Below are positions 9,643 through 29,544 of a DNA stretch of 64,000 nucleotides, piece by piece. Made by a program: the position numbers and the translations under genes. Location: contig DATFYA010000085.1 in the NCBI GenBank assembly GCA_035315345.1, positions 2,288 through 66,287 on the forward strand. Reading direction: 5' to 3'. The notes under the pieces are model-generated. The model saw nothing but the letters and a program-made list of their open reading frames with translations. It was not told the origin of the DNA and ran no database searches. Position 1 is the first letter of the stretch, and every line of letters begins with the position of its first letter. This DNA is from Candidatus Methylomirabilota bacterium (GTDB lineage: Bacteria > Methylomirabilota > Methylomirabilia > Rokubacteriales > CSP1-6).

Positions 9643-10647
9643 ATGGCTTCAGGGCTGGTGGTAGGGGTGGTGGGTGTGACCGGCGCGGTCGGGCAGACCA
9701 CGGTGAAGCTCCTCGAGGAGCGCAAGTTCCCGGTGCGCGAGCTGCGCGCCTTCGCCTCGGCCCGGTCGGTCGGCAAGACGGTCACCTTCAAGGGCGAGTC
9801 GATTCGCGTCGAGGCGGCGGGCCCGGACTCGTTCAAGGGCGTGGAGCTGGCGCTCTTCTCCGCCGGGTCCCAGCAGTCGAAGGAGCTGGCCCCGCACGCG
9901 GTGCGGGCGGGGGCGATCGTGATCGACAAGTCGAACGCGTTCCGCATGGATCCCCAGGTTCCCCTGGTGGTGCCCGAGATCAACCCCCACGCGGTCCGGG
10001 GCCATCGCGGCATCCTCGCGTGCCCGAACTGCACGACCATCGTCACCGTGATGCCGCTGAAGCCGCTGCACGACGCCGGCCGCCTGCGCCGGGTGGTGGC
10101 CACCAGCTATCAGGCGGTCTCCGGCGCGGGTGTGAACGGGGTCGAGGAGCTGCGGAGCCAGACCCTGGCCTGGGCCCGCGGCGAGGGGATCACGCCGCGA
10201 TACTTCCAGCACCAGATCGCGTTCAACGTCATCCCGCACATCGACAAGTTCGCGGACAACGGCTACACCGGCGAGGAGATCAAGCTGGTGAACGAGGTGC
10301 GGAAGATCCTCGAGCTGCCGGACCTGCCGATCTCCCCCACCACGGTGCGGGTGCCCGTGTTCACCGCGCACTCGGTCGCGGTCAACGCCGAGACCGAGGC
10401 GCGGCTCGGTCGGGAGCGCGCCCGCGAGGTGCTCGCCGGCTTCCCCGGGCTCAAGCTGTGGGACGAGCCCGCCGACAACCGGTACCCGATGCCGGTCCTC
10501 GTCGAGGGGCAAGACGACTGCTACGTCGGACGGATCCGCGAGGACCTGTCCATGCCCAATGCGCTGAACTTCTGGGTGGTCGGCGATCAGCTCCGGAAGG
10601 GCGCCGCGCTCAACGGCATCCAGATCGCCGAGCTGCTGATCCGCTGA
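9643..10647 (+). CDS. asd: aspartate-semialdehyde dehydrogenase
   Basis: …VGVVGVTGAVGQ… NAD(P)-binding N-terminus, catalytic …CPNCTTI… 334 aa. Confidence 0.95.
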   Translation: MASGLVVGVVGVTGAVGQTTVKLLEERKFPVRELRAFASARSVGKTVTFKGESIRVEAAGPDSFKGVELALFSAGSQQSKELAPHAVRAGAIVIDKSNAFRMDPQVPLVVPEINPHAVRGHRGILACPNCTTIVTVMPLKPLHDAGRLRRVVATSYQAVSGAGVNGVEELRSQTLAWARGEGITPRYFQHQIAFNVIPHIDKFADNGYTGEEIKLVNEVRKILELPDLPISPTTVRVPVFTAHSVAVNAETEARLGRERAREVLAGFPGLKLWDEPADNRYPMPVLVEGQDDCYVGRIREDLSMPNALNFWVVGDQLRKGAALNGIQIAELLIR

Positions 10648-10654
10648 TCGCCCG

Positions 10655-11446
10655 ATGGGCGAGCCCGGGCGCGCCGTCCGGCTCACGCTCGCCTACGAGG
10701 GCACGGACCTCCACGGCTGGCAGATCCAGCCGGGGCGCGACACGGTCCAGGGGCTCGTCATGGGCGCGGCCGCGCGGGTGCTGGGCGAGCCGGTTCGGGT
10801 GACCGGCGCGAGCCGCACCGACGCCGGGGTGCACGCCCTCCGGCAGGTGGCCAGCCTTGCCACGTCGTCTCCGATGGCGCCGGCGGCCCTGCAGCGGGCG
10901 CTCAACGCCCTGCTGCCGCCGGCGGTGCGCGTGGTCGAGGCGGCCGAGGCGCCCGCGGGCTTCGATGCGCGGCGCTGGGCGCGGGGCAAGCGCTACGCCT
11001 ATCTCATCGACCGCAGCGCGCCGGCCGACCCGTTCCGGCGACGCTACGCGTGGCACGTCCCGTTCCCGCTGGACGCGGGGGCGATGGCGGCCGCGGCGCG
11101 CGCCCTCCGGGGCAAGCACGACTTCTCCGCCTTCTGCGCGGCGGCGGGCCGCGATCGGACGCCGGTCTGCACGATCCGGTCGGTGCGCGTGGTGACGCGG
11201 CGTCGGCTGCTCGCGGTGTGCGTCGCCGGCGACAGCTTCCTTCACCACATGGTGCGCAACATCGTCGGCAGCCTGGTCGAGATCGGCCGGGGCGCGCAGG
11301 GTCCCGGCTGGATCGCGGAGCTGCTGCACGGGCGCGACCGCACCCGCGCGGGTCGCACCGCGCCCGCGCACGGCCTCGTGCTCGTGCGCGTGCTCTACGG
11401 CCCCGTGGACAGAGAGCCGCGCCCGAAGCCCCTTCCTTTATACTGA
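10655..11446 (+). CDS. truA: tRNA pseudouridine(38-40) synthase
   Basis: …RLTLAYEGTDLHGWQIQPG…RTDAGVHA… TruA catalytic Asp motif. Confidence 0.9.
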   Translation: MGEPGRAVRLTLAYEGTDLHGWQIQPGRDTVQGLVMGAAARVLGEPVRVTGASRTDAGVHALRQVASLATSSPMAPAALQRALNALLPPAVRVVEAAEAPAGFDARRWARGKRYAYLIDRSAPADPFRRRYAWHVPFPLDAGAMAAAARALRGKHDFSAFCAAAGRDRTPVCTIRSVRVVTRRRLLAVCVAGDSFLHHMVRNIVGSLVEIGRGAQGPGWIAELLHGRDRTRAGRTAPAHGLVLVRVLYGPVDREPRPKPLPLY

Positions 11447-11583
11447 GGCCGCGCAGCCAGCGACATGCGGACCTACTTTCACGTCAAGGCCGGCCGGCTC
11501 CACGAAGTCAAGGAGGCGCTCCTCGTCGACGGGGCGAGGCCGTCGCGCGGGCGCCTGCTGCCCCGCGAAGACGGAGCACCTCG

Positions 11584-12390
11584 GTGAACGAGGTGCTGTT
11601 CGACGTCGCGCTCACCGCCTACATCCTGGCCGCGGCGGCCTCCATCGGCTCGCTGCTGGGCCGGCGCGATCAGCTCGGGTGGATCGCCCTGCTACTGATC
11701 CAGGCGGGCTGGGTGTGCCACACGGTGGCGGTGATCCTCCGCGGCGTCGAGCTGCGGCGGCTGCCGTTCATGACCATCCCCGAGGTGATCTCGCTCGTGA
11801 TCTGGGCAGTGGTGCTCTTCGATCTCTGGGCGGAGCGGCGCGGGCGCGTCCGCGCGCTGTCCGCCTTCGTGCTGCCGGTGGTCCTGGTGCTGGGGCTCGG
11901 CCTGCCGTCCGGGCTTCGCGCGATCGCGTTCGACGCGCCGGTTCGGAGCGGGTGGATCGCGGTCCACGTGGCGCTGATCCTGATCGGCCTGGCCGCGCTG
12001 GTGCTCAACTTCGGCGGCGCGATCATGTACCTGCTCCAGGAGCGGCAGCTCAAGGCCAAGCGGGCCGGCACCGTCTATCGCCGACTGCCCGCGCTCGAGA
12101 CGCTCGATCGACTCACGGTGGCCACCCTGACCGCGGGCTTCCCGTTCCTCACGGTGGGCCTCCTGCTGGGCGTGCTCTCGGCGCGCCGCGCGTGGGGCAG
12201 CGTGATCGCCTTCGATCCGCTCGCCCTGTTCTCGCTCTTCATGTGGATGGTCTACGCGGTGATCCTGGTCGGCCGCGGGTTGGGGCACTGGCGCGGGCGG
12301 CGCGCCGCCTACTTCTCGATCGCCGGCTTCTGCGTGCTGCTCGCCACCCTCGGTGCCGGCGCCTTCCTCACCGGCCGCCACGGATCCTGA
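11584..12390 (+). CDS. hemX: CcsA-like cytochrome c assembly / HemX-like membrane protein
   Basis: Polytopic membrane protein immediately upstream of hemA, as with hemX in hemAXCDBL operons. GTG start chosen. The long upstream part of the 11050 ORF overlaps truA out of frame. Confidence 0.55.
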   Translation: MNEVLFDVALTAYILAAAASIGSLLGRRDQLGWIALLLIQAGWVCHTVAVILRGVELRRLPFMTIPEVISLVIWAVVLFDLWAERRGRVRALSAFVLPVVLVLGLGLPSGLRAIAFDAPVRSGWIAVHVALILIGLAALVLNFGGAIMYLLQERQLKAKRAGTVYRRLPALETLDRLTVATLTAGFPFLTVGLLLGVLSARRAWGSVIAFDPLALFSLFMWMVYAVILVGRGLGHWRGRRAAYFSIAGFCVLLATLGAGAFLTGRHGS

Positions 12391-12394
12391 CCCC

Positions 12395-13696
12395 ATGAGC
12401 GCTCCCGGCATCCTGTTCGTGGCGGGCATGAATCACCGGACCGCGCCGGTGGCCACGCGGGAGCAGCTCGCCCTCGAGGAAGAGAAGATCCGCGAGATCC
12501 TCTCCGACCTCACCGGCCGCGGGCTCCTCGACGAGGTGATGATCCTCTCCACCTGCAACCGGGTGGAGGTCTACGGCGTCGCCGCGGTGCCGGGTGAGGC
12601 GCGCTCGGCTGCGTTCGGGCGCCTCGGGACCCACCGCGGCGTGTCGTGGCGGGATCTGGAGCCGCTGCTCTACACGGTGACCGGCGACGAGGCCGCGCTC
12701 CACGCGTTCCGCGTCGCGGCCAGCCTCGATTCGATGGTGCTGGGCGAGCCCCAGATCCTCGGCCAGGTGAAGGACGCCTTCGCGCTGGCCCAGTCCGCCG
12801 GCACCGCGGGCCCGGTGCTCCACGCGCTCATGAGCCAGGCGTTCAGCGCGGCCAAACGGGTGCGGTCGGAGACGGAGGTCGGCCGGCTCGCCGTCTCGAT
12901 CTCCTACGCGGCGGTGGAGCTGGCTCGCAAGATCTTCGAGGGCCTCGCGGGCAAGGCGGTCCTGCTGGTGGGCGCGGGCGAGATGAGCGAGCTGGCGGCC
13001 CGGCATCTCGTGGAGCACGGCGCGCTGCCGCTCTACGTGACCAACCGGACGTGGAGCCGGGCTCAGGAGCTGGCCCGCGGCCTCGGCGGCATCGCGGTGC
13101 CGTTCGATCAGCTGGAGGCCACGCTCGGCGTGGTGGACATCGTCGTCACGTCCACCGCGGCCCCGGAGCCGATCGTCACCGCGACGCACGCGCGGGCCGC
13201 GCGGCAGGCTCGCCGCGGCCGGCCGCTCTTCTTCATCGATATCGCGGTGCCGCGCAACGTGGAGGCCGCGGTCAATGACGTGGAGAACGTGTTCTGCTAC
13301 GATATCGACGACCTGCGCTCGGTGGTCGAGGCCAACATCAAGGAGCGGCAGCGCGAGGCCCGGCGGGCCGAGTCTCTCCTGGAGCGCGAAGTCGTGAAGT
13401 TCGCGGAGCGGCTGCAGCACCTCGAGGTCGTGCCCACCATCGTGTCGTTGAGACAGAAGCTGGAGGCGATCCGACGCGCGGAGCTGGCCCGGGCGCTTGG
13501 CCGTCTGCCCGCGGCGGACGAGGAGACGCGCCGGGTGATGGAGAGCCTGAGCCAGTCGATCGTCAACAAGGTGCTGCACGCGCCGATGGTCAAGCTCAAG
13601 GACTCCTCCCGCGCCGGCCACGGCCGCCGCTGGACCGAGATGATCTCCGAGCTGTTCGGGCTGCGCGGTCCCGATCGTCCCGCTCCGGGCGAATGA
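12395..13696 (+). CDS. hemA: glutamyl-tRNA reductase
   Basis: …LSTCNRVEVYG… active-site Cys motif, NADPH domain, about 433 aa. Confidence 0.9.
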   Translation: MSAPGILFVAGMNHRTAPVATREQLALEEEKIREILSDLTGRGLLDEVMILSTCNRVEVYGVAAVPGEARSAAFGRLGTHRGVSWRDLEPLLYTVTGDEAALHAFRVAASLDSMVLGEPQILGQVKDAFALAQSAGTAGPVLHALMSQAFSAAKRVRSETEVGRLAVSISYAAVELARKIFEGLAGKAVLLVGAGEMSELAARHLVEHGALPLYVTNRTWSRAQELARGLGGIAVPFDQLEATLGVVDIVVTSTAAPEPIVTATHARAARQARRGRPLFFIDIAVPRNVEAAVNDVENVFCYDIDDLRSVVEANIKERQREARRAESLLEREVVKFAERLQHLEVVPTIVSLRQKLEAIRRAELARALGRLPAADEETRRVMESLSQSIVNKVLHAPMVKLKDSSRAGHGRRWTEMISELFGLRGPDRPAPGE

Positions 13697-14607
13697 TCCT
13701 GCGGCTGGGCACGCGGGGCAGCCGCCTCGCGCTCGTGCAGTGCGAGGAGGTGGCGGCGGCGCTGCGGGTGCGCGGGGTCGAGACCGAGACGGTGGTCATC
13801 CGGACGTCCGGCGATCGCCTCGCCCAGGTCGCCCTCGCCGACTTCGGCGGCAAGGCGCTCTTCGTGAAGGAGATCGAGGAGGCGCTGCTCGCCGGCACCG
13901 TGGACGTGGGCGTGCACAGCCTGAAGGACATGCCCGCCGAATTGCCCGGCGGACTGGCGCTCGCCGCCTTTCCGGCCCGGGAGGACCCGCGGGACGCGCT
14001 ACTGACCCGGACCGCCGGCGGCTGGTCGGCGCTGCCGACGGGCGCCTCGGTCGGCACCTCCAGCCCGCGCCGGCGCGCGATGGTCCTCGCTCGCCGGCCC
14101 GATCTGCGGGCCGACCCGATCCGCGGCAACGTCGAGACCCGGCTCGAGAAGCTCTCGGTGGGGGCCTATGACGGTATCGTCCTGGCCCTGGCCGGGCTGA
14201 GGCGCCTCGGCGTCTCCCCGCCGCATGTCCTGCCGCTCGACCTCGACGAGTTCGTGCCCGCGGTCGGACAGGGCGTGCTCGCCATCGAAGCCCGTGAAGC
14301 CGACCGGGAAGTGCTTGAACTTCTGGGTCGGCTGGACGACACTCGGAGCAGATCGGAGGCCCTGGCGGAGCGCGCCTTCTTGCGTCGCCTCGGCGCCGAT
14401 TGCCACACGCCGGTGGCCGGCCACGCACGCATGGACCGCGATGAGCTGACCGTGACCGGGGTGGTCACGAGCCTGGACGGTGCCACCGTGCTGCGCGGAA
14501 GCGCGCGCGGATCGGCGTCGGGCGCCGAGCGGCTCGGCCAGGTGGTGGCGGAGGCTCTGCTGGCCAAGGGGGCGAGGACGCTGCTCGATGCGCGCGGCAA
14601 CGGATGA
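13693..14607 (+). CDS. hemC: hydroxymethylbilane synthase (porphobilinogen deaminase)
   Basis: …LRLGTRGSRLALVQ… N-terminus and dipyrromethane cofactor Cys region. ATGA overlap with hemA. Confidence 0.9.
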   Translation: MILRLGTRGSRLALVQCEEVAAALRVRGVETETVVIRTSGDRLAQVALADFGGKALFVKEIEEALLAGTVDVGVHSLKDMPAELPGGLALAAFPAREDPRDALLTRTAGGWSALPTGASVGTSSPRRRAMVLARRPDLRADPIRGNVETRLEKLSVGAYDGIVLALAGLRRLGVSPPHVLPLDLDEFVPAVGQGVLAIEAREADREVLELLGRLDDTRSRSEALAERAFLRRLGADCHTPVAGHARMDRDELTVTGVVTSLDGATVLRGSARGSASGAERLGQVVAEALLAKGARTLLDARGNG

Positions 14608-15412
14608 TCAAGTGACGGCCGAGGCGGGGGCACGTAAACCCCTGGCCGGCAAGGTGGTGCTGATCACCCGCGCCAGGGAGCAGGCCTCGGCCTTCGCCCA
14701 GCTCCTGGAGGCAGCCGGCGCGCACGTCCTCCTCGTTCCCACCATCGCGATCGAGCCGCCCGATTCGTGGGGGCCGCTCGACGCCGCGCTTCGGGGCGAC
14801 TTCTCCTGGGTCGTATTCACCAGCGCCAACGGCGTGGCCATGGTACGCGGCCGCGTCGAGGCGACCGGTCACGGCCGTGCCCTGCTGGAGCGCGCCCACC
14901 TCGCCGCCATCGGTCCCGCGACCGCCGCGGCGCTCGCCGACTGGGGGCTGCGCGCGGAGGCCGTCCCCGAGGAGTTCGTCGCCGAGGCTCTCGTCGATCG
15001 GCTCCGCCCGATGATGACGGCCGGCCAGCGCATCCTGCTCCCGCGGGCCGCCGAGACGCGCGACGTGCTGACGCGCGAGCTGGCCGCGCTGGGCGCTGAC
15101 GTGACCGAGGTCGCCGCCTACCGAACCCGCTTCGCGACCGAGCATGCGCCGGCGCTGCGGGAGGCGCTGGCCGGCGGCCGCGTGGACGTGGTCACGTTCA
15201 CCAGCTCGTCCACGGTGCGGAGCTTCTGCGGGCTGTTCGGCGCCGCCGAGCTGCCGCGCCTGCTCGGCGGCGTCACGGTGGCGTGCATCGGTCCCATCAC
15301 GCGGGCCACCGCGGAAGGGCGCGGGCTCGCGACGCAGATCGTGCCCGAGGAGTACACGATACCGGGCCTGGCCCGCGCCATCGTCGCCCACTTCGAGCCA
15401 GCAAGGAGCTAG
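14588..15412 (+). CDS. hemD: uroporphyrinogen-III synthase
   Basis: HemD-fold protein in the hemC/hemB context (…KVVLITRAREQASAFAQLLEAAGAHVLLVPTIAIEP…). Start is ambiguous: ATG 14588 overlaps hemC by 20 nt, GTG 14621 is the alternative. Confidence 0.7.
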   Translation: MRAATDDQVTAEAGARKPLAGKVVLITRAREQASAFAQLLEAAGAHVLLVPTIAIEPPDSWGPLDAALRGDFSWVVFTSANGVAMVRGRVEATGHGRALLERAHLAAIGPATAAALADWGLRAEAVPEEFVAEALVDRLRPMMTAGQRILLPRAAETRDVLTRELAALGADVTEVAAYRTRFATEHAPALREALAGGRVDVVTFTSSSTVRSFCGLFGAAELPRLLGGVTVACIGPITRATAEGRGLATQIVPEEYTIPGLARAIVAHFEPARS

Positions 15413-15415
15413 CGC

Positions 15416-16399
15416 ATGCCGTTCCCCCTCTACCGTCCCCGGCGGCTCCGCGAGTCGCCGCTGCTCCGCTCCATGGTGCGCGAGACCGCCCTGCGCGTCG
15501 ACGACTTCGTCTATCCGCTCTTTGCGGTGCACGGACGAGGGGTCCGCGAGCCGATCAGCTCGATGCCCGGGCAGTGTCGGCTCTCGATCGACGAATTGCT
15601 GAAGGAGTGCAAGGACGCGGCGTCGATGGGCATCCCGGCGGTGCTGCTCTTCGGACTGCCGCGCGACAAGGACCCCCGCGGGACCGAGGCCTACGCCGAG
15701 GACGGCATCATCCAGCAGGCGGTGCGGGCGGTGAAGGACACCATCCCGGACCTGCTCGTGATCACCGACGTGTGCCTGTGCGAGTACACGAGCCACGGCC
15801 ACTGCGGGGTGGTCGAGGACGGGCGGGTGAAGAACGATCCCACCCTCGAGCTGATCGCGCGCACCGCGGTGTCGCACGCCGAGGCGGGGGCCGACATGGT
15901 GGCGCCGTCGGACATGATGGACGGCCGCGTGGCCGCCATCCGCGAGGGACTGGACGAGGCGGGATTCCCCGAGACGCCGATCATGGCCTACTCGGCCAAG
16001 TACGCCTCCGCGTTCTACGGGCCGTTCCGCGAGGCGGCGGACTCCACCCCGCAGTTCGGCGACCGCCGCTCCTATCAGATGGATCCCGCCAACGCGGTCG
16101 AGGCGATGCGCGAGGTCGCGCTCGACGTGGACGAGGGCGCCGACATCGTGATGGTGAAGCCCGCGCTGCCGTATCTCGACATCATCGCGCGCGTGAAGGG
16201 TGAGTTCGGGCTGCCGGTGGCCGCCTATTCGGTCTCGGGCGAGTACGCGATGCTGAAGGCGGCCGGGCAGCTCGGCTGGCTCGACGAGGAGCGCGCGGTG
16301 CTGGAGGCGCTGACCGGCATCCGCCGCGCGGGCGCCGACATCATCATCACCTACTTCGCCAAGGACGCGGCCCGCCTGATCGAGCAGGGCCGCGCGTGA
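15416..16399 (+). CDS. hemB: porphobilinogen synthase (delta-aminolevulinate dehydratase)
   Basis: …[18 protein letters not shown]…, Cys-rich Zn site ([12 protein letters not shown]), active-site Lys region. Confidence 0.95.
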
Positions 16400-16836
16400 G
16401 GATCTCGGCCAAGGGCGAGTACGCCATCAAGGCGATGGTGGATCTCGCCCTGCACGAGGGCCGCGACCTGCAGCCGATCCAGGACATCGCGGCCCGGCAG
16501 GGCATCCCGCAGCGCTACCTGGAGCAGGTGCTGCTGCAGCTCAAGCGCTCCGGCTTCCTCTACGCCCGGCGCGGCTCGGCGGGCGGCTACCGGTTGAGCC
16601 GGCCCGCCGACAGCATCACGGTGGGGGCGGTGCTCCGCGCGGTCGATGGGCCGACGGCCGGCCCCGATGCCTCGCGCCGCAACGGCGGGCCGGCCGGAGA
16701 GGCGGCGGGCCTTGCCGAGTTGTGGCAGGAGATTGCCGACGCGGTGGCCTCGGTGGTGGACCGGACCACCCTGGAGGATCTCCGCCGGCGCGCCGAGGAG
16801 CGTCGCAGCGCGGCGCGGCCGATGTACCACATCTGA
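16396..16836 (+). CDS. Rrf2-family transcriptional regulator (CymR/IscR-like)
   Basis: …[18 protein letters not shown]…[31 protein letters not shown]…. GTGA overlap with hemB. Sits directly upstream of cysK, as CymR does. Confidence 0.8.
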
Positions 16837-16859
16837 ATCCGAGCAGGGGACACAGGACG

Positions 16860-17807
16860 ATGACGACGACGCGGAAGACGGCCGCGCCGACCCGGCCACG
16901 GCTGGCCGGATCGGTGCTGGACCTGGTGGGCGGCACGCCGCTGGTGCGCCTGAACCGCATTCCCAAGCCGGGCGGCGCCGTCGTCCTGGCCAAGATGGAA
17001 TCGCTCAACCCGGGCGGAAGCGTGAAGGACCGCATCGCGCTCTCGATGATCGAGGAGGCGGAGCGGCGCGGGCTGCTCAAGGCCGGGGCCACCATCGTGG
17101 AGCCGACCAGCGGCAACACCGGCATCGGGCTCGCGATGGTCTGCGCGGTGCGCGGCTACCGCCTCATCCTGACCATGCCCGACGACATGAGCGTGGAGCG
17201 GCAGCGCCTCCTCGCGCGCTACGGGGCCGAGATCCATTTGACTCCGGCCATCGAGGGCATGACCGGGGCGGTCTTCGCGGCGCAGGAGATCTGCCGCGAG
17301 CATCCCGACTACTTCATGCCGCTGCAGTTCGAGAATCCCGCGAATCCGGAGGCGCACCGGCGCACCACCGCGCAGGAGATCCTCGACGCGACCGAGGAGC
17401 GCGTGCACGCCTTCGTGGCCGCGGTGGGGACCGGCGGCACGGTGACCGGGGTCGGCGAGGTCCTGAAGGAGCGCGTGCCCGGCGTCCGGGTGGTCGGCGT
17501 CGAGCCGGCGCGCTCGCCGGTGCTCTCCGGAGGGCGCTTCCGGCCGCACGGCATCCAGGGCATCGGCGCGTCCTTCGTGCCCGGCATCCTGAACCGCTCC
17601 GTGCTGGACGACATCATACAGGTGCGCGACGAGGACGCCACGGCCATGGCGCGGCGTCTCGCCCGCGAGGAGGGGCTCCTCGTCGGCATCTCGTCGGGCG
17701 CCAACGTGTTCGCGGCGTGCCAGGTCGCCGAGACGATGGCGGCCGATCACGTCGTGGTCACCGTGCTGTGCGATACTGGCGAGCGCTATCTGAGCGTCAC
17801 CTTCTAG
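16860..17807 (+). CDS. cysK: cysteine synthase (O-acetylserine or O-phosphoserine sulfhydrylase; CysK/CysM type)
   Basis: PLP fold-II, …GGTPLVRLNRI…ESLNPGGSVKDRIALSMI…TSGNTGIGLA…. 315 aa. CysK versus CysM cannot be decided by eye. Confidence 0.9.
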   Translation: MTTTRKTAAPTRPRLAGSVLDLVGGTPLVRLNRIPKPGGAVVLAKMESLNPGGSVKDRIALSMIEEAERRGLLKAGATIVEPTSGNTGIGLAMVCAVRGYRLILTMPDDMSVERQRLLARYGAEIHLTPAIEGMTGAVFAAQEICREHPDYFMPLQFENPANPEAHRRTTAQEILDATEERVHAFVAAVGTGGTVTGVGEVLKERVPGVRVVGVEPARSPVLSGGRFRPHGIQGIGASFVPGILNRSVLDDIIQVRDEDATAMARRLAREEGLLVGISSGANVFAACQVAETMAADHVVVTVLCDTGERYLSVTF

Positions 17808-17818
17808 GAGAGGCGGCC

Positions 17819-18142
17819 ATGAGTGTCCAGGTCTACATCCCGACGCCGTTCCGCCGCGCGACCAGGAACGCGGACCGGGTCTCCGTGGAGGCGCCCGACG
17901 TCAAGGGCCTGCTCGACGAGCTCGAGGACCAGTTCGGCGGGCTGAAGGGTCTGGTGCGCAACGAGCAGGGCGAGGTCCACCACCACGTCAACATCTACGT
18001 CAACAACGAGGCGATCGAGGCGCTCCAGGGACTCGACACCGCGCTAAAGGACGGCGACGAGGTATCGATCATTCCAGCCCTCGCGGGCGGCGGGCCAGCC
18101 CTCGCGGGCGGCGGGCCGGCCCTCGCGGTGGGACGGGGCTGA
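17819..18142 (+). CDS. MoaD/ThiS/CysO-family sulfur-carrier protein with repeated C-terminal extension
   Basis: Beta-grasp carrier, …VNIYVNNEAIEALQGLDTALKDGDEVSIIPALAGG…, followed by GPALAGGGPALAVGRG. AGGAG RBS 8 nt upstream. The 3' end carries a 21-bp tandem duplication. Confidence 0.65.
   Translation: MSVQVYIPTPFRRATRNADRVSVEAPDVKGLLDELEDQFGGLKGLVRNEQGEVHHHVNIYVNNEAIEALQGLDTALKDGDEVSIIPALAGGGPALAGGGPALAVGRG
18081..18139 (+). repeat. 21-bp tandem duplication (about 2.7 copies, GCCCTCGCGGGCGGCGGGCCA-like) forming the 3' end of the CysO-like gene
   Basis: AGCCCTCGCGGGCGGCGGGCC / AGCCCTCGCGGGCGGCGGGCC / GGCCCTCGCGGTGGGACGGGGCTGA read directly from the sequence. It encodes PALAGGG-PALAGGG-PALAVGRG. 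Confidence 0.8.
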
Positions 18143-18152
18143 CCGCGCCCGG

Positions 18153-18614
18153 ATGATCCTCACGTCCGACGAGCTGCAACGGGTGCGCGCTCAGGCGGTG
18201 ACGGAGTACCCGGCGGAGTGCTGCGGCGTTCTCCTGGAGCGGACCTCACCCGAGCCGGACCGGCTCCTGATGCCCTGCCGCAACATCCAGGACGAGCTGC
18301 ACGCCAAGGACCCGGTGCGCCACTCGCGCGATTCCCGCACCGCCTACTTCATCGATCCCAAGGACCTGCTGGCCATCGGCCGGCGCGAGGGGCAGGGCTA
18401 CCGCGTCGCGATCATCTATCACTCCCACATCGACACCGGGGCCTACTTCTCGGCGACCGACCGGCAGAACGCGCTCATCAACGGCGAGCCCGCCTATCCC
18501 GACGCGGTCTACGTCGTGCTGTCGGTGGTGGACCGCCGCGTGGACGACGTGGCCGCGTTCGTCTGGGACAAGTCCGCGCGCGATTTCGCGCCGACCGACT
18601 TCACGCCCTCCTGA
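18153..18614 (+). CDS. JAMM/MPN+ (Mov34) metalloprotease, Mec+/QbsD-like
   Basis: E-x(n)-HSH-x7-S-x2-D zinc motif (…[18 protein letters not shown]…), 153 aa, immediately after the sulfur-carrier gene. Confidence 0.75.
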
Positions 18615-18618
18615 TCGC

Positions 18619-19899
18619 GTGACCGGCTCCGACGATCTCTTCGAGCGCGCCCAGCGCCTCATGCCCGGGGGCGTCAACAGCCCGGTGCGGGCGTTCCGCG
18701 GCGTGGGCGGGGCCCCGTTCTTCGTGGCCCGCGGGGACGGGGCCCGCGTGTTCGACGTCGACGGCCGCTCCTACGTCGACTTTCTCGGCTCGTGGGGGCC
18801 GCTGATCCTCGGGCACGCGGCGCCGGCGGTGGTGGAAGCGCTGACCGAGGCGGTGCGCCGCGGCACCAGCTACGGCGCACCCACGCCGGGCGAGGTGGAG
18901 ATGGCCGATCTCATCGGCCGCGCGGTGCCGAGCATGGAGATGGTGCGGCTGGTCTCGTCGGGCACCGAGGCCGGGATGAGCGCGATCCGGCTCGCCCGCG
19001 GCGCCACCGGGCGCGACTTCATCATCAAGTTCGACGGCTGCTACCACGGCCACGCCGACAGCCTGCTCGTGAAGGCGGGGTCCGGCGGCGCCACCTTCGG
19101 GGTGCCGGACAGTCTCGGCGTGCCGCCCGCGTTGGCCGCGCTCACCCTGACGGTCCCGTTCAACGATCTGGACGCGGTCCGACGCCAGCTCGAGGCGCAT
19201 CCCGAGCAGGTGGCGGCGGTGATCGTGGAGCCGGTGGCCGGCAACATGGGCGTGGTCCCGCCCGCCCCCGGATTCCTCGCCGGCCTGCGCGACCTGACCG
19301 CGCGGCACGGCAGCCTGCTCATCTTCGACGAGGTGATCACCGGGTTCCGGGTCGCGTGGGGCGGCGCGCAGGCCCGTTACGGCGTGCGGCCGGACCTGAC
19401 CTGCCTCGGCAAGATCATCGGCGGGGGACTGCCGGTGGGCGCCTACGGCGGCTCGCGCCGCATCATGGAGCGGGTGTCGCCGCTGGGCGGCGTCTACCAG
19501 GCGGGGACGCTCTCCGGGAACCCGCTCGCGGTGGCGGCCGGCCTCGCCACGCTCCGCGCGCTGCAGACGCCCGGCACGTACGAGCGGCTGGAAGCCCTCG
19601 GCGCGCGTGTCGAGCGCGACGTGGTCGAGGCGGCCCGCGCGGCGGGCGTTCCGGTGACCGTGAATCGCGTCGGCTCGATGCTGACCGTCTTCTTCACCGA
19701 CGGCCCGGTGACCGACTATAGCTCCGCCAAGCGCGCCGACACCACTCGGTACGCGCGCTACTTCCACGCGATGCGAGAGGGCGGCGTGTTCCTGGCGCCC
19801 TCGCAGTTCGAGGCGGCCTTCGTCTCGCTCGCCCATCGCGACGAGGACCTGGCGGAGGCGGCCCGCGCCGGCCGCGAAGCGCTCCAGAAGGTCCGCTAG
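18619..19899 (+). CDS. hemL: glutamate-1-semialdehyde 2,1-aminomutase
   Basis: …[20 protein letters not shown]… class-III aminotransferase with PLP lysine region. GTG start. Confidence 0.95.
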
Positions 19900-19911
19900 C
19901 CTCGCAGAGTA

Positions 19912-19941
19912 TTGACACTTCGTTTTTTCACGTGATAGGGT
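19912..19941 (+). promoter_or_regulatory. putative promoter upstream of the act-like operon (TTGACA -35, weak -10)
   Basis: Perfect TTGACA at 19912-19917. Possible -10 GATAGG/TAGGGT 16-18 nt downstream. Sits in a 170-bp AT-richer spacer. Confidence 0.3.
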
Positions 19942-20069
19942 TCACAAGGCTGGAGCCCGGACACGCGTCGAAGAACCACCGGTCTTCATCCACGGCACGC
20001 CTCAGAGCGGGAGAGCACGTCCAGCGGGGGGCTGCGTCACCTGCCAATGCGAGTTGGGCGGAGGAGTGG

Positions 20070-23000
20070 ATGAGTGTGATGGATCGCCGGTCGTTCTTCA
20101 AGATCGTCGCCACCACCGGCGCCGCGGCGGCGACGGGCGGCTGCGGACCATCGGCAGGAACGCTCCTCCCCTACGTCGTCCCTCCCGACAACATCGTCCC
20201 CGGCGTACCGGCATATTTCTCGACGGTGTGCCGCGAGTGCCCAGCCGGATGCGGCCTCATCGCCAAGAACCGCGACGGCCGCGTGATCAAGCTCGAGGGC
20301 AACCCGGATCATCCGGTGAACACCGGCGCGCTCTGCATCCGCGGTCACGCTGGACTGCAGGCGCTCTACCATCCCGATCGGTTCCGCGGCGCGCTGGCGA
20401 AGGGCCAGCCGGTCGCCTGGGACGACGCCGAGAAGCAGGTGGCCGACAAGATCGCCGCCCTCGCCGGCGGCAAGCAGGGCGGGCGCATCGCGATCGTGAG
20501 CGGGCTCGAGACGGGAAGCCTCGGCCGGCTGATGGACGAGTGGGTGCGGCTGGTGGGCGCGCGTCCGCGTATCTCGTACGAGCCGCTCGCCTACGAGGCG
20601 GTGCGGGCGGCGAACCGCATCACGTTCGGACGGGACGCGATACCGGAGTACGCGATCGGCGAGGCTGCGTACCTGGTGTCCTTCGGCGCCGACTTCCTGG
20701 AGACGTGGCTGTCGCCGGTCGCCTACACCGCCGACTTCTCGCGCATGCACGCGTTCTACCAGGGGCGCACCGGCACCTTCGTGCACGTCGAGCCCCGGGC
20801 GTCGATGACCGCTGCCAACGCGGACGAATGGGTGCGGAACGCGCCGGGCACCGAGGGGCTGCTCGCCCTCGCCATGCTCAAGGTCGTCGTGGACGAAGGG
20901 CTCGCGACGGGCGGCGGCGATCCGAACACGCTGCGCTCGGCGACCCGCTCGGCGGACGTGGACGCGGCCGCGTCGGCCTCCGGCGTGCCCGCCGACACGA
21001 TCCGACGGGTCGCGCGGGACCTGGCGCGCTCGAAGGCGGGCCTCGTCGTCGGTGGCGGGATGGCCGGCGCCGGCTCCAGCAGCACGGACACGCTGGTCGC
21101 GATCAACCTGCTCAACGTGGCGATCGGGGCGGTGGGCCCCCGCGTCCGCTTCGGCTCGGCCTCGGCCTTCGGGCGCGCGAATCCCTATTCCGACATGGTG
21201 GCGCTGACCCAGGCGATGGCGGGCGGGCAGATCGACGTGCTGGTGCTGGTCGACGTCAACCCGGTGTATGCGATGCCTGCGAAGTCGGGCTTCGCCGACG
21301 CGCTCGGCAAGGTGCCGCTGGTCGTGGCCCTCGCGAGCCGATCGAGCGAGACGACGGCGCGCGCCGCGGTGGTGCTGCCGACCCTGCATCCGCTCGAGTC
21401 GTGGGGCGACTATTCGCCGCAGGAGGGCGTGCTCGGGCTCCTGCAGCCCGCGATGGGGCCGGTGCTGATCGAGGGCAAGCCGGTCCAGGCGAAGAACCCC
21501 GGCGACATCCTCTTGAGCGTGGGCCGTCAAGCCCTGCGGCTCGAGGAGGGCAAGGGCCCGCTGCCCTGGCCGACCTTCCGCGATTTCCTCACGGAAGAGT
21601 GGCAGAAGATGGCGCGGGCCCAGGGCAGCGCCGAGCCGTTCCCGGCCTATTGGGAGGCGGCGCTCCGGCGGGGTGGAGTGTGGCGGAACGTCCCGCCGAG
21701 CCCGATGAGCTTGCGGCCGGAGGCCGGTCGGGTTTCGGCCGCGCCCGCGCGGCTGGACGGCAACGGCTCCCACGTGCTCCTCGTGTATCCGTCGAGCCGC
21801 TTCTACGACGGCCGTGGCGCGGACCGGGCATGGCTGCAGGAAGCGCCGGACCCGATGACCCAGGTGAGCTGGGACGCCTGGGTCGAGGTGCCAACCGAGA
21901 CGGCGACCCGGATGGGGATCCGGCGCGGCGACCTGCTCACCCTGACCTCGCCGAACGGCGCGATCGAGCTGCCCGCCTATCCGACCGATCTCGTGCACCC
22001 CGGGGCGGTGGCGGTGCCCATGGGACAGGGGCGCAAGCTGTCGGGTGCCTATGCGGCCGGGACGCCGTCGACGGCGGCCAGCAACCCGCAGCCCAGCACG
22101 TTCCTGAACGTGGGAGCGAATCCCGTCGATCTCCTCGGGTCGACGCCCGATCCCGCGTCGGGTGGTCCCATCTACCTCGGCGTGAAGGTGTCGCTGGCGC
22201 AGACCGGAGGGCGGCGCGCCCTCGCGGTGCCGCAGGCCACGTTCGATCAGGACGAGCGCGAGCTCGCGCAGTACGTGGGCCTCACCGCCGCCCGCGAGCT
22301 GGACCTGCGCGGACGGGCCCCGGCCGACGCCAGTCATCCGAGCATGTATCCGCCGATGAAGTACGCCGAGTACAAGTGGGGCATGACGGTGGACGTGGAC
22401 CGCTGCACCGGCTGCTCGGCGTGCGTGGTCGCCTGTCAGAGCGAGAACAACGTCCCGGTGGTGGGACGCGAGCAGGCGGCCTACGGGCGCATCCAGCACT
22501 GGCTGCGGCTGGAGCGCTGGCAGGAGGGCACCGCCGCGCAGCCGCTCAACATGTTCATGCCGATGTTCTGCCAGCACTGCGAGGTGGCGCCGTGCGAGCC
22601 GGTGTGCCCGGTCTACGCGGCCTACCACACCCGGGAGGGCCTGAACGGGCAGGTCTACAACCGGTGCGTGGGCACGCGGTACTGCGGCAACGCGTGCCCG
22701 TACCACGTCCGGCGCTTCAACTGGTTCAACTACACGTGGCCGGCCCCGCTCGACCAGCAGCTGAATCCGGACGTGACGGTGCGCGAGGCCGGTGTGATGG
22801 AGAAGTGCACGATGTGCCTGCAGCGCATCGTGGCCGCCAAGGCGCAGGCGCGCGATGACGGGCGGGCGGTGCGCGACGGCGACATGCAGACCGCCTGTCA
22901 GCAGACGTGCCCGACCCGCGCGATCACCTTCGGCAACCTGAAGGACGCCAACGCGGAGAGCGCCAAGCTGGCGCGGTCGCCCCGCGGCTACCACGTGCTC

Positions 23001-23096
23001 GGGGAGATCGGGACCCAGCCCAGCGTGACCTATCTCAAGAAGGTCGTGCGCACCGAGCCCGCCGGCGGCCACAAGGCCCCCGGAGGCCACGCGTGA
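20070..23096 (+). CDS. actB: alternative-complex-III-like subunit ActB (Tat-exported molybdopterin-oxidoreductase-like domain fused to a 4x[4Fe-4S] ferredoxin domain)
   Basis: GGAGGAG RBS. Twin-arginine signal MDRRSFFKIVATTGAAAA. N-terminal half molybdopterin-oxidoreductase-like. C-terminal half has CxxCxxCxxxC clusters (CTGCSACVVACQSE…, CQHCEVAPCEPVCP…, CVGTRYCGNACP…). About 1008 aa. Confidence 0.7.
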   Translation: MSVMDRRSFFKIVATTGAAAATGGCGPSAGTLLPYVVPPDNIVPGVPAYFSTVCRECPAGCGLIAKNRDGRVIKLEGNPDHPVNTGALCIRGHAGLQALYHPDRFRGALAKGQPVAWDDAEKQVADKIAALAGGKQGGRIAIVSGLETGSLGRLMDEWVRLVGARPRISYEPLAYEAVRAANRITFGRDAIPEYAIGEAAYLVSFGADFLETWLSPVAYTADFSRMHAFYQGRTGTFVHVEPRASMTAANADEWVRNAPGTEGLLALAMLKVVVDEGLATGGGDPNTLRSATRSADVDAAASASGVPADTIRRVARDLARSKAGLVVGGGMAGAGSSSTDTLVAINLLNVAIGAVGPRVRFGSASAFGRANPYSDMVALTQAMAGGQIDVLVLVDVNPVYAMPAKSGFADALGKVPLVVALASRSSETTARAAVVLPTLHPLESWGDYSPQEGVLGLLQPAMGPVLIEGKPVQAKNPGDILLSVGRQALRLEEGKGPLPWPTFRDFLTEEWQKMARAQGSAEPFPAYWEAALRRGGVWRNVPPSPMSLRPEAGRVSAAPARLDGNGSHVLLVYPSSRFYDGRGADRAWLQEAPDPMTQVSWDAWVEVPTETATRMGIRRGDLLTLTSPNGAIELPAYPTDLVHPGAVAVPMGQGRKLSGAYAAGTPSTAASNPQPSTFLNVGANPVDLLGSTPDPASGGPIYLGVKVSLAQTGGRRALAVPQATFDQDERELAQYVGLTAARELDLRGRAPADASHPSMYPPMKYAEYKWGMTVDVDRCTGCSACVVACQSENNVPVVGREQAAYGRIQHWLRLERWQEGTAAQPLNMFMPMFCQHCEVAPCEPVCPVYAAYHTREGLNGQVYNRCVGTRYCGNACPYHVRRFNWFNYTWPAPLDQQLNPDVTVREAGVMEKCTMCLQRIVAAKAQARDDGRAVRDGDMQTACQQTCPTRAITFGNLKDANAESAKLARSPRGYHVLGEIGTQPSVTYLKKVVRTEPAGGHKAPGGHA

Positions 23097-24445
23097 GCGC
23101 TCCTCCGGCCGGCGCCGCGCAGCCCACGTGGGCCGACGTCAACCACGATGTCGACCGGACGCTGCTGACCGCGGGTAACACCTACTTCGCGTGGATGACG
23201 CTCATCGCGCTCATCCTCGCCGCCGGCGTGGCCGCGTGGGCCTGGCAGATCTGGGTCGGCTTGGGCGCGGCCGGTATCCGGACGCCGCAGATGTGGGCGC
23301 TCTACATCACCAACTTCGTGTTCTGGATCGGTATCGGCCACGCGGGCACGCTGATCTCCGCCATCCTGTATCTCTTCCGGGCGAAGTGGCGCACCTCGAT
23401 CTACCGGGGCGCGGAGGCCATGACCGTCTTCGCGGTCATGACCGCGGGGCTGTTTCCGCTGATCCACGTCGGGCGCATGTGGTTCGCCTACTGGCTCATG
23501 CCCTATCCGAACCAGCGCTACCTCTGGCCGAACTTCAAGTCGCCCCTCATCTGGGACGTGTTCGCGATCTCGACCTATCTGACCATCAGCGTGGTCTTCT
23601 TCATCGTGGGCCTCGTGCCGGACATCGCGGCGATCCGCGACCGGTCCACCGGGCTCAAGCGGAAGGTCTTCGCGGTCTGCGCGCTCGGCTGGGAGGGGAG
23701 CGACTGGCAGTGGCGGCACTACCGTCGCGCCTACGGACTGCTCGCCGCGCTGGCGACCCCCCTCGTGCTCTCCGTGCACAGCGTGGTGTCGTTCGACTTC
23801 GCGATGGCCCTGATCCCCGGCTGGCACTCGAGCCTGTTCGCCCCGTTCTTCGTGGACGGAGCCATCTTCTCGGGCTTCGCCATGGTGCTGATCCTCATCA
23901 TCCCCATGCGCGCCGTGTTCGGCTGGCACGCCTACATCACCGACCGGCATCTGGACGCGATGGCCAAGCTGACCCTGGTCACCAGCCTGGTGCTGACCTA
24001 CTTCTATCTCTGCGAGTCGGGCACCGCGTGGTACAGCGGCGAGGTGTACGAGCGGGCGTCGCTCTTCGCGCGGGCCTTCAAGGCCTACACGTTCACCTTC
24101 TGGCTGCAGTACATCTGCAACTCGCTGATCCCCCTCGTGCTCTTCTGGCGGAAGGCGCGGACCAACCTGGTGATCCTGTACGTGGTGTCGATCTTCGTCC
24201 TCATCGGCATGTGGCTCGAGCGATTCAACATCATCGTCCCCGGTCTGGGCTATGACTTCTATCCGTACACGTGGGGCGTGTACCTGCCGCGCGTCGTGGA
24301 CACCACGATCACGGTGGCCTCCTTCGCGTGGTTCTTCCTGCTGTTCCTGGGCTTCATCCGCGTGATGCCGTCGCTGTCGATCGTGGAGGTCAAGGAAGTC
24401 TTGCCCCATCCGCTCAAGCACGGCGCCCATGGAGGCCATCACTGA
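23093..24445 (+). CDS. actC: NrfD/PsrC-family polytopic membrane subunit (ActC-like quinol-interacting subunit)
   Basis: GTGA overlap with actB. About 10 predicted TM helices, NrfD-like. Confidence 0.7.
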   Translation: MSAPPAGAAQPTWADVNHDVDRTLLTAGNTYFAWMTLIALILAAGVAAWAWQIWVGLGAAGIRTPQMWALYITNFVFWIGIGHAGTLISAILYLFRAKWRTSIYRGAEAMTVFAVMTAGLFPLIHVGRMWFAYWLMPYPNQRYLWPNFKSPLIWDVFAISTYLTISVVFFIVGLVPDIAAIRDRSTGLKRKVFAVCALGWEGSDWQWRHYRRAYGLLAALATPLVLSVHSVVSFDFAMALIPGWHSSLFAPFFVDGAIFSGFAMVLILIIPMRAVFGWHAYITDRHLDAMAKLTLVTSLVLTYFYLCESGTAWYSGEVYERASLFARAFKAYTFTFWLQYICNSLIPLVLFWRKARTNLVILYVVSIFVLIGMWLERFNIIVPGLGYDFYPYTWGVYLPRVVDTTITVASFAWFFLLFLGFIRVMPSLSIVEVKEVLPHPLKHGAHGGHH

Positions 24446-24953
24446 GATGGCGACCGCCAACGTGCTCGGGGTGTTCGCGCACGTCGACACCACGCTCCAG
24501 GCCATCCGGGACCTGCGGGCCAAGGGCTTCGGGGACCTGACCGTCTACACCCCGGTTCCGGTGGAGGAGATCGAGGAGGAGGTGGAGAGTGTCCGCCCCG
24601 TGTCCTCGGTCCGGCTCTTCACGCTGGTCGGCGGCCTCACCGGCACCGCGACCGGCTTCTTCCTGACGATCTGGACCTCGCTGAAGTGGGAGCTGCTCAC
24701 CGGCGGGAAGGCGGTCGTGTCCATCCCGCCCTTCATCATCATCGCCTTCGAGCTGACCATCCTCCTGGGCGGGCTGGCCAGCGCCCTCGCCATCCTGGTC
24801 CTGGGACGCCTGCCGAAGCTGCGGCCGTCGGCCACCTACGATCCGCGCTTCACCCTGGATCGCTTCGGGGTCGCGGTGGCGTGCCCGGCCGACAAGGTGG
24901 ACTCGGTGAGCTCGGTGCTGTCCGGCGCGGGCGCGGAAGAGGTCCGGCGATGA
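24429..24953 (+). CDS. actD: ActD-like small membrane subunit (DUF3341 family)
   Basis: 174 aa, two TM helices, N-terminal …ANVLGVFAHVDTTLQAIRDLRAKGF… resembles DUF3341. Position fits ActD. Confidence 0.55.
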   Translation: MEAITEMATANVLGVFAHVDTTLQAIRDLRAKGFGDLTVYTPVPVEEIEEEVESVRPVSSVRLFTLVGGLTGTATGFFLTIWTSLKWELLTGGKAVVSIPPFIIIAFELTILLGGLASALAILVLGRLPKLRPSATYDPRFTLDRFGVAVACPADKVDSVSSVLSGAGAEEVRR

Positions 24954-25456
24954 TGAAGTGGGTGTTCGTGCTGTCGCTGCTGGTGGTGGGGGCCTTCGGC
25001 GGCTGGCTCGCGCTGAACGTGGTGCACTGGTGGCAGACCGACATGTTCCACACGCAGCGGGTGATGCCCGGCGAGGCGGCCTACTCGATGCCGACCGGCA
25101 GCCTTCCGCGCAACGGCGGCCAGATGTACTACTCGCCGGCGGATCGTGATGCCGCCGCGGCCCGGCGCAATCCGATCGCGGCCACCACCCAGTCGGTGAG
25201 CCGCGGCGGAGAGCTCTTCGCGATCTACTGCACGCCGTGCCACGGGGCCAGCGGCAAGGGTGACGGCCCCGTGTCCACGAAGTTCGTCCCGCCGGCCGAC
25301 CTCACGAACCCGGAGCTGCAGAAGGTCCGCACCGATGGGTACTGGGAGAGCTACCTGAGCGTCGGCGGCGCGGTCATGCCCTCGTACGGCGAGGCCCTGA
25401 CGCCCGACGAGCGGTGGGCGATCGTGAACTACGTGCGAACGCTGGCCAAGAAATGA
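24950..25456 (+). CDS. actE: monohaem c-type cytochrome (ActE-like)
   Basis: Signal/anchor then a single CTPCH haem-binding motif with downstream Met. ATGATGA overlap with actD. Confidence 0.65.
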   Translation: MMKWVFVLSLLVVGAFGGWLALNVVHWWQTDMFHTQRVMPGEAAYSMPTGSLPRNGGQMYYSPADRDAAAARRNPIAATTQSVSRGGELFAIYCTPCHGASGKGDGPVSTKFVPPADLTNPELQKVRTDGYWESYLSVGGAVMPSYGEALTPDERWAIVNYVRTLAKK

Positions 25457-29467: not shown

Positions 29468-29544
29468 GCTAACGGAACCGCAAACGGCAGTCAAAGTCTC
29501 GTGAAAATTGACTTTTCGAGAAGCGAGGTGGTACGGTCTGGGCC

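Follow-up and report, generated by a model that had tools for sequence, protein, structure and literature searches.

Why should genes for cysteine synthesis lie inside a cluster that builds tetrapyrroles? The question is raised by a 64-kb window (the whole stretch analysed here, from contig DATFYA010000085.1 of a Candidatus Methylomirabilota bacterium) in which ten co-directional genes on the + strand run in the order ccsB/hemX-like, hemA, hemC, hemD, hemB, an Rrf2-family regulator, cysK, a sulfur carrier, a JAMM peptidase and hemL. A first-pass annotation of this DNA had placed four genes (Rrf2, cysK, carrier and JAMM) between hemB and hemL and described the whole as tightly coupled. Listing of the open reading frames (ORFs), translation and scans with Pfam and NCBIfam profiles assign all ten ORFs to the families it had named and confirm the four-gene interruption, and the junctions read in the sequence are as tight as it had said. 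Our answer, to which we give a probability of roughly 0.65, is that the ten genes are a single operon conserved in the Rokubacteria/Methylomirabilota, that the cysteine module entered it once, in an ancestor, and has been kept since, and that the module works in the way proposed below. What is new here are the near-universal tails of the carriers and the existence of natural carrier-JAMM fusions. The order of the genes is, by itself, a trait of the lineage; the carriers made as precursors or as fusions are the better lead to follow.

The first gene of the cluster (11584-12390) encodes a ccsB/hemX-like membrane protein of the cytochrome c assembly family (PF01578, E 1e-31), which scores 130 bits against TIGR03144, under the cut-off of 188, and whose start agrees with the gene call on the identical contig L001 (related loci carry numbers with the prefix L). 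It is followed by hemA for glutamyl-tRNA reductase (12395-13696; TIGR01035, 462.6 bits vs a cut-off of 209.6), which has an alternative GTG start at 12353; the L001 gene call (433 aa) begins 4 nt past the ccsB stop. Next come hemC for hydroxymethylbilane synthase (13693-14607; TIGR00212, 323.9 bits vs 164), hemD for uroporphyrinogen-III synthase (14588-15412; PF02602, E 4.5e-64) and hemB for porphobilinogen synthase (15416-16399; NF006762, 520 bits vs 297). The hemA and hemC genes overlap by 4 nt (ATGA) and hemC and hemD by 20 nt, and 3 nt separate hemD from hemB. The inserted module begins with the CymR-like Rrf2-family regulator (16396-16836; PF02082, 118 bits), whose GTG start overlaps the hemB stop as GTGA, just as the first-pass annotation had reported. 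After a gap of 23 nt stands cysK, for a pyridoxal phosphate enzyme of the O-acetylserine sulfhydrylase A type (16860-17807; TIGR01139, 434.7 bits vs 350.95). The gene for pro-CysO, a sulfur-carrier precursor of ThiS/MoaD fold (17819-18142; PF02597, 52 bits vs 22.5), lies 11 nt further on, with GGAGAGG inside the gap, and 10 nt separate it from the gene for a Mec-like JAMM/MPN+ zinc peptidase (18153-18614; PF14464 (Prok-JAB), 57.9 bits vs 25). The last gene, hemL for glutamate-1-semialdehyde 2,1-aminomutase, also has a GTG start (18619-19899; TIGR00713, 620.6 bits vs 527), and the gap before it measures 4 nt (18615-18618) rather than the 2 nt first given.

The cluster had also been described as an otherwise Bacillus-like hemAXCDBL arrangement. 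Like that of Bacillus subtilis, it gathers hemA, hemC, hemD, hemB, hemL and a PF01578-family membrane protein (HemX) into one co-directional cluster. However, the order A-X-C-D-B-L with adjacent hemB and hemL is not what is found: the HemX-like gene stands ahead of hemA and four cysteine genes split hemB from hemL, so that the order reads X-A-C-D-B-[Rrf2-cysK-cysO-JAMM]-L.

Related loci were retrieved with the JAMM protein as bait. The first-pass annotation had suggested comparing gene order across relatives, and the order proved to be the same in all of them: each of the 84 mapped related loci holds a contiguous subset of the ten-gene order (44 reach from hemB to hemL and 21 have the full set), and the same four genes stand between hemB and hemL in every one of the 44 that span both. 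The ten-gene order is kept in contigs with an identical JAMM protein, in relatives whose JAMM is 71-78% identical, also where the flank upstream is now fdhD/E (L093), in 80 second-clade metagenome loci (identities of 53-65% for JAMM, 68-81% for hemL, 53-60% for hemC and ~52% for ccsB), and in L180 and three fused-gene-lineage loci, one of them labelled Tectomicrobia. Proteins identical to the JAMM product bear the NCBI label Methylomirabilota, and close JAMM homologues carry the label Candidatus Rokuibacteriota. The junctions in relatives are short as well, with median gaps of 13 nt for hemB-Rrf2, -4 for Rrf2-cysK, 16 for cysK-cysO, -4 for cysO-JAMM and -4 for JAMM-hemL, and the flanks (leuB-asd-truA, alternative complex III, moeA) are also syntenic. 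It had been foreseen that an insertion found throughout the lineage would say little; the cys genes are present in every related locus examined, which makes them a long-standing trait of the lineage and not an informative event of recent date. Horizontal transfer of the module in recent times was considered and rejected, because GC content is 0.69-0.75 throughout (region ~72%) with no step at the cys module, and because the order is conserved deep in the lineage.

A scan baited with hemL, one genome per species, had been intended as an unbiased lineage sample and was used as a cross-phylum control instead. In the 79 species of other phyla that it returned (hemL identity 51-67%), the hemL locus is always without a cysK, carrier or JAMM homologue, and hemB lies within 300 nt upstream of hemL in 32 of them. 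The combination, called unusual in the first-pass annotation, is thus unusual outside the lineage (0/79) but not inside it, where all related loci examined have it. A literature search on the arrangement or on CysO in Rokubacteria returned nothing specific. Three outgroup loci (Latescibacterota, Gemmatimonadetes and a 3-Mb contig), sampled via more distant JAMM homologues, have stand-alone genes for a cyclic nucleotide (cNMP)-binding regulator, PALP, JAB and ThiS beside aspS and rpsT, with no hem genes and no Rrf2 (L177 6490-8462, L178 6480-10608, L179 7051-8908); the JAMM gene there overlaps the PALP stop. Since these outgroups run the same kind of module on its own, the cys module does not need the hem genes. 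A single old insertion together with recruitment of an Rrf2 gene in the lineage ancestor would be the simplest reading of this distribution. As a side observation, L178 has large TPR proteins interleaved in the module and a second PALP gene.

The carrier has a feature that had been overlooked at first pass, namely that it does not stop at Gly-Gly. Its closest matches in the Protein Data Bank (PDB) are the CysO proteins 4n6e_B (A. orientalis) and 3dwg_C (M. tuberculosis), at E ~2e-13, and both stop exactly at the Gly-Gly aligned to carrier residues 90-91. In the window the beta-grasp core ends in ...IIPALAGG, with Gly90-Gly91 at nt 18086-18091, and is followed by a 16-residue tail, GPALAGGGPALAVGRG (nt 18092-18139), which leaves the carrier without a free C-terminal Gly-Gly. 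A 21-nt tandem repeat on the + strand, with 2.6 copies at 18074-18128 (Tandem Repeats Finder (TRF) score 103), codes for the PALAGGG units of the tail, and contigs with the identical JAMM encode carriers of 100, 107 and 121 aa, equal to 1, 2 and 4 repeat units. Across relatives, 64 of the 65 separately encoded carriers extend 1-19 residues (median 4) beyond Gly-Gly and one ends there; the IIPALAGG core is invariant, and the tails are unrelated and hypervariable. The copy number of the repeat varies among contigs that are otherwise ~99-100% identical (L001 9688-9990, L002 9625-9990, L003 9667-9990), point variants read GGG or GGA and ALAGG or ALTGG, and every repeat unit restores the ALAGG of the predicted cleavage site.

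Carrier and peptidase are fused in frame in 14 loci with at least six sequence variants, where no stop codon separates the two and the linker is 3-6 residues long (fusion loci include L136 1976-2725, L139 18-695, L143 9719-10537, L147 1098-1841, L164 90-827, L168, L170 and L171). At least 45 clusters of ThiS+JAB fusions of 228-278 aa, called by independent pipelines, are also present in the public protein collection. An AlphaFold2 (AF2) model of one fusion (pTM 0.61) has two confident domains, with pLDDT <50 at the LAGG-S junction; in Foldseek its N-domain matches 4n6e_B/3dwg_C with TM 0.88-0.91 and the other domain matches Pyrococcus JAMM1 with TM 0.72. Fused proteins are now annotated as hypothetical or as 'proteasome lid subunit RPN8/RPN11 / molybdopterin converting factor small subunit'. 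They occur in several sub-lineages at ~245-272 aa (proteins P0271-P0317), P0306 coming from a metagenome-assembled genome labelled Candidatus Tectomicrobia. Protein P0321 has three tandem RPALAGG units after the core and is missing the N-terminal JAMM part with the catalytic Glu region, and may represent a copy that has decayed or was wrongly assembled.

The JAMM motif of the window protein is intact, E(23)...H-S-H-x7-S-x2-D with the Glu in YPAECCG, and in family alignments the Glu hardly varies, and the His, Ser and Asp positions vary little if at all. Its closest PDB match is 2kcq, and its homologues carry the JGI label '[CysO sulfur-carrier protein]-S-L-cysteine hydrolase'. Since the carrier cannot be adenylated before trimming and either adjoins the JAMM or is fused to it, the neighbouring JAMM probably trims pro-CysO, a role predicted from adjacency, the fusions and the universal tails. 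By analogy with Mec, we infer that the same peptidase also releases cysteine from CysO-Cys. For the trimming of carrier tails by a JAMM there is precedent in QbsE/QbsD (thioquinolobactin) and CxnE/CxnF (chuangxinmycin), in which residues also lie beyond Gly-Gly and the adjoining JAMM is proposed or shown to expose it (PMC5925218). Unlike those pairs, the pair described here belongs to a cysteine module of primary metabolism, is near lineage-universal in its tails (64/65 carriers), and combines hypervariable tails, including a variable-number repeat, with repeated carrier-protease fusion. HcyS/HcyD of Wolinella methionine synthesis is a further pair of pro-sulfur carrier and JAMM maturase. Eukaryotic ubiquitin precursors (polyubiquitin and ubiquitin-ribosomal protein fusions) offer a wider parallel, since there too a beta-grasp protein has an extension or partner after Gly-Gly and is released by a peptidase, and the JAMM fold is that of Rpn11 and CSN5. 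The difference is that here the fusion partner is the peptidase itself, the product would be a sulfur carrier and not a protein modifier, and there is no E2 or E3.

Which kind of synthase the carrier would serve is less in line with what had been proposed. The top PDB matches of the synthase are CysK enzymes at 346-353 bits (2egu 353, M. tuberculosis CysK1 2q3b 349). Against the E. coli-type cysM model TIGR01138 it scores 314.9 bits, under the cut-off of 394, and it is 41% identical (173 bits) to M. tuberculosis CysM (3dwg_A, sequence verified). CysM Arg220 aligns with the Gln of the synthase motif IQGIG, and the synthase ends shortly past GERYLS, without the CysM-type C-terminal extension. 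We take CysM Arg220 to serve phosphate recognition (Agren et al. 2008) and the C-terminal extension that CysM also has to be mobile. A mycobacterial CysM-type (O-phosphoserine) synthase was considered on this basis and set aside, given the low CysM score, the Gln in place of Arg220 and the lack of an extension. Because the CysK model is passed and CysM features are absent, the synthase is by sequence an O-acetylserine-type CysK, with its substrates predicted. The first-pass description of a 'CysM/CysO type' pathway as known from Mycobacterium thus holds for the carrier and the peptidase, which are CysO/Mec-like, but not for the synthase.

The Rrf2 protein contains no cysteine, as is the case in 48 of 49 relatives, and is therefore unable to bind an Fe-S cluster as IscR, NsrR or RirA do. 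An IscR identity was rejected, there being no cysteines for the 3 Cys + 1 His ligands and a TIGR02010 score of 89.9 bits vs a cut-off of 207.6. Its best NCBIfam equivalog is CymR (NF047409), with a full-length alignment of 1-146 to 1-139. The C-terminal pentapeptide P-M-Y-H-I (16819-16833, + strand) is, from the conservation of the tail, a candidate plug of the CysK active site: the C-termini read [RS][PAS/T?]-M/T-[YW]-[HY]-I in 49/49 relatives, always with a terminal Ile, and in the T. potens Rrf2 structure 4cic the sequence aligned to the tail is ...GYMYYI. In S. aureus the CymR tail YMFYI enters the CysK active site via the carboxylate of its terminal Ile, with a KD of 25 nM (bioRxiv 10.1101/2024.09.19.614015). 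The locus resembles the CymR-CysK systems of Bacillus subtilis and Staphylococcus aureus in that a cluster-ligand-free Rrf2 is encoded beside a CysK-type enzyme, and in that its M-Y-H-I C-terminus is similar to the Y-M-F-Y-I of S. aureus. It differs in belonging to another phylum, with ~72% GC, and the Firmicutes regulator is not combined with CysO and JAMM.

Taken as a whole, the proposal is that a self-contained cysteine module was inserted once, in an ancestor, between hemB and hemL of a hemACDBL-type cluster. The Rrf2 protein would act as a cluster-less CymR-like repressor whose ...M-Y-H-I tail docks in the active site of the adjacent CysK; at low O-acetylserine the tail would fill that site and a DNA-binding repressor complex would form. 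Because the tail would dock in CysK, the CysK-regulator complex should sense O-acetylserine, as it does in Bacillus and Staphylococcus. The JAMM would cut pro-CysO after Gly-Gly before adenylation, and a MoeZ-like E1 encoded elsewhere would adenylate and thiocarboxylate the trimmed carrier. The CysO-thiocarboxylate would then attack the CysK aminoacrylate derived from O-acetylserine, an S-to-N shift would follow, and the JAMM would finally free cysteine from CysO-Cys, as Mec does in M. tuberculosis. If this is true, O-acetylserine, the regulator tail and the carrier tail compete for one CysK active site.

A close described counterpart is Mec(Rv1334)-CysO(Rv1335)-CysM(Rv1336) of M. tuberculosis. 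There too the genes for a CysO-like carrier, a JAMM peptidase and a PLP-dependent cysteine synthase are clustered, with the E1 encoded elsewhere. MoeZR in mycobacteria is reported to be common to this pathway and molybdenum cofactor synthesis (PMC3227635). The differences are a CysK-type synthase here, a tailed or fused carrier in place of a CysO that ends at Gly-Gly, the order cysK-cysO-JAMM, the attached CymR-like regulator and the embedding in a hem operon. ThiS/MoaD-JAB-cysteine synthase neighbourhoods have been reported from several phyla with a predicted coupling of sulfur transfer and cysteine (Iyer, Burroughs & Aravind 2006, Table 1 rows 4c, 4d; PMC1779556). They share the same three-gene core but include an E1-rhodanese gene (4c) or ClpS (4d), and none is described in a hem operon or with Rrf2 (PMC1779556).

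That the ten genes look co-transcribed had been stated at first pass, and this is likely, with good comparative support, given the tight junctions, the lack of an internal promoter or terminator and a -10 motif that brackets the unit. A generic promoter and terminator scan gave no promoter, and two terminator-like sites inside coding sequence with no excess over shuffles. The promoter scan was too strict for the lineage and overlooked a conserved TTGACA-N18-TAGGGT promoter with a TGn extended -10, found later by alignment of the hemL-actB spacer (19912-19941, + strand). This predicted promoter of the downstream alternative complex III genes begins 12 nt past the hemL stop, is invariant in five relatives, is the sole such + strand site in 10500-20100 and marks the 3' boundary of the ten-gene unit. 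The spacer is too short to accommodate a terminator, which makes read-through from hemL into alternative complex III possible. The extended -10 TGnTAnnnT was counted over 71 related loci: there are 19 instances upstream of ccsB, 45 downstream of hemL, one in hemA and none from hemC through hemL.

Upstream of ccsB the extended -10 is mostly TGGTAAACT. A block conserved in the second clade directly upstream of ccsB, GCATCGGGAATGTGGTAAACT, might include an operator that overlaps the -10. The second clade and the fused-gene lineages share a conserved block, ...AATCCGCATCGGGAATGTGGTAAACT..., some 30-45 nt ahead of ccsB (L100-L176, e.g. L125, L138, L175); the AATCCGCATCGGGAATGTGGTAAACT block probably contains the operon promoter, with extended -10 TGGTAAACT, and possibly a regulator site too. 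The truA-ccsB spacer aligns poorly. The promoter block of the other clades is missing in the window, whose own 137-nt spacer upstream of ccsB (11447-11583) has no copy of the conserved block. Synonymous-site diversity is not reduced at the 3' ends of hemB and JAMM, and the idea of a conserved internal promoter was therefore dropped. An Rfam scan of the window gave three tRNAs only and no riboswitch or leader near the cluster. The first-pass annotation had also taken the Rrf2 protein as regulator of the unit; its gene does lie within the unit, but a search for Rrf2-type operators as inverted repeats in 11.4-20.1 kb gave only GC-rich imperfect palindromes within genes, none convincing.

Some relatives have large gaps inside the operon (118-271 nt). 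Those between hemB and Rrf2 were considered as promoter regions and rejected, as the large gaps consist of tandem REP-like palindromic repeats. The units of ~55-65 nt (e.g. ...GCCGTGGCCGCCACGGCGAAGCGAGCC...) fill the hemB-Rrf2 gap and, in one case, the cysO-JAMM gap, and their sequences differ by lineage (L120 7845-8115, L127 2726-2932, L131 7970-8151, L172 8029-8294, L123 2217-2334, L093 9883-10000).

Several points weigh against one conserved operon with a module working as proposed. Because the JAMM served as bait, lineage members without the cys module would escape detection, and the hemL-baited scan reached only one other Methylomirabilota species, because its peptide patterns were too specific. 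In the window no recognisable promoter is found in the 137 nt upstream of ccsB. The name 'CymR-like Rrf2 repressor' given at first pass is borne out by the lack of Cys, the best equivalog and the tail, but the score against the CymR model is 99.7 bits, under the cut-off of 195. No ThiF/MoeB(-rhodanese) E1 is present among the window ORFs scanned (a few weakly coding stretches excluded), nor was an E1 found within 10 kb in relatives. The AF2 model of the fusion, with its low-confidence junction, does not separate cis from trans cleavage. The sole biochemically proven CysO-dependent synthase is, to our knowledge, a CysM-type O-phosphoserine enzyme.

What the parts do and what their arrangement means are separate matters, and rival explanations exist for both. 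The carrier and JAMM might not be dedicated to cysteine at all, with a MoaD-like molybdopterin role or a ubiquitin/SAMP-like modifier and its protease beside a cysK that is merely adjacent. The top NCBIfam scores of the pair point in that direction (SAMP1 55.7 with a cut-off of 60, archaeal-type MoaD 47.5 with 49.5, desampylase 43.9 with 130), moeA and moaA are present in the window, and synthesis as a precursor or protease fusion resembles that of ubiquitin. However, all three scores are under their cut-offs and the closest solved relatives are the two CysO proteins; the cysK-carrier-JAMM order and coupling (gaps of 2-16 nt and -4 nt) are found in all loci, the PALP-JAB pair recurs in the outgroups, and neither an E2-/E3-like gene nor moaE is adjacent. 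We consider this explanation improbable. Very improbable, in our estimate, is that the Rokubacterial CysO is ubiquitin-like in a second capacity, being conjugated to proteins (e.g. haem enzymes of the same operon) besides carrying sulfur, with the JAMM as maturase and deconjugase; if true, this would be a bacterial SAMP/Urm1-like dual-function system linked to tetrapyrrole and cysteine metabolism.

As to the arrangement, the module's expression would follow the promoter of the tetrapyrrole trunk because it sits inside the operon, and a selected physiological link of haem and cysteine is plausible; we put it forward as a hypothesis. Possible reasons for such coupling are the need of sirohaem for sulfite reduction, or the cysteine demand of the c-type cytochromes encoded downstream. 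Assimilatory sulfite reductase uses sirohaem as its cofactor, and sirohaem is made from uroporphyrinogen III, the product of hemD. The first-pass suggestion that cysteine supply is co-regulated with haem or sirohaem demand is plausible, but neither a conserved operator nor a dip in synonymous diversity accompanies it. The module could instead persist neutrally, since overlapping starts and stops make excision costly, with no cysteine-tetrapyrrole physiology involved, an explanation that concerns the meaning of the arrangement and not the function of its parts. It agrees with the lack of any conserved operator or embedded element found at the junctions, with the stand-alone outgroup module next to aspS, and with the synteny of leuB-asd-truA, alternative complex III and moeA; since these flanking neighbours are also syntenic, gene order in the lineage is conservative in general. 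Yet the arrangement survives divergence to ~50% ccsB identity and the changes of upstream flank to fdhD/E in L093 and L180, and REP-like repeats entered the hemB-Rrf2 and cysO-JAMM gaps with the order unbroken. Because the order persists despite divergence, flank change and repeat insertion, some selection for co-expression is the easier explanation, and we regard neutral persistence as a tentative alternative, at clearly less than even odds. A more specific version of coupling, in which a CymR-like/CysK complex at the ccsB promoter or an internal site gates uroporphyrinogen III, and hence sirohaem, together with cysteine, appears unlikely. The regulator gene does belong to the unit that may be its target, and its translation is coupled to that of hemB, the second-clade block GCATCGGGAATGTGGTAAACT upstream of ccsB is a candidate operator overlapping the -10, and sirohaem from the hemD product serves sulfite reductase. 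Against this, the inverted-repeat search of 11.4-20.1 kb identified no palindromic Rrf2-type operator, the conserved block is missing upstream of ccsB in the window, and no sulfite reductase or sirohaem synthase gene is among the window ORFs scanned.

All components come from described families, so that the system is not one of a new kind; what had not been described before is their combination, a Firmicute-style CymR/CysK sensor and an actinobacterial-style CysO/JAMM pair in a tetrapyrrole trunk operon, in a phylum that is uncultured and abundant in soil. The tails and fusions predict that Mec-type peptidases are carrier maturases as well as CysO-cysteine hydrolases, and they suggest that protein thiocarboxylates may be usable by CysK-type enzymes and not by CysM alone. 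In the fusions there is also a simple bacterial model of how a ubiquitin-fold protein is processed from a precursor. Annotation should not carry the module over as a 'CysM pathway'.

The rest of the window is core chromosome. Upstream neighbours are ppdK, ilvBNC, leuB, asd and truA; downstream lie the alternative complex III genes, moeA, dprA, topA, hslVU, arg genes, moaA, a chlorite-dismutase-family protein and gltBD. In the window's clade no gene for a multihaem ActA-like protein is present in the alternative complex III cluster (19932-26598); the fused-gene lineages have a gene for a 196-aa cytochrome c7/c3-like protein ahead of actB (L174 4625-5215, L175 12308-12898, L176 12340-12930). For the long ORF from 19932 the probable start is the Tat-signal Met (~20070), not the GTG. 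Downstream of moeA, on the - strand at 28457-29653, is a YeeE/YedE-type 'sulphur transport' membrane protein (PF04143), syntenic in L001-L003, L092 and L093, a possible importer of thiosulfate or sulfur not far from the cysteine module. The chlorite-dismutase-family ORF (48802-49632, a partial match to PF06778) adjoins moaA and could be a HemQ/ChdC coprohaem decarboxylase, in which case the coproporphyrin-dependent haem branch would operate in this organism. Finally, a cluster of tRNA-Gly(GCC), tRNA-Cys(GCA) and tRNA-Leu(TAA) lies at 44800-45078, with an extended -10-like TGTTACAGT ahead of it at 44761-44769.

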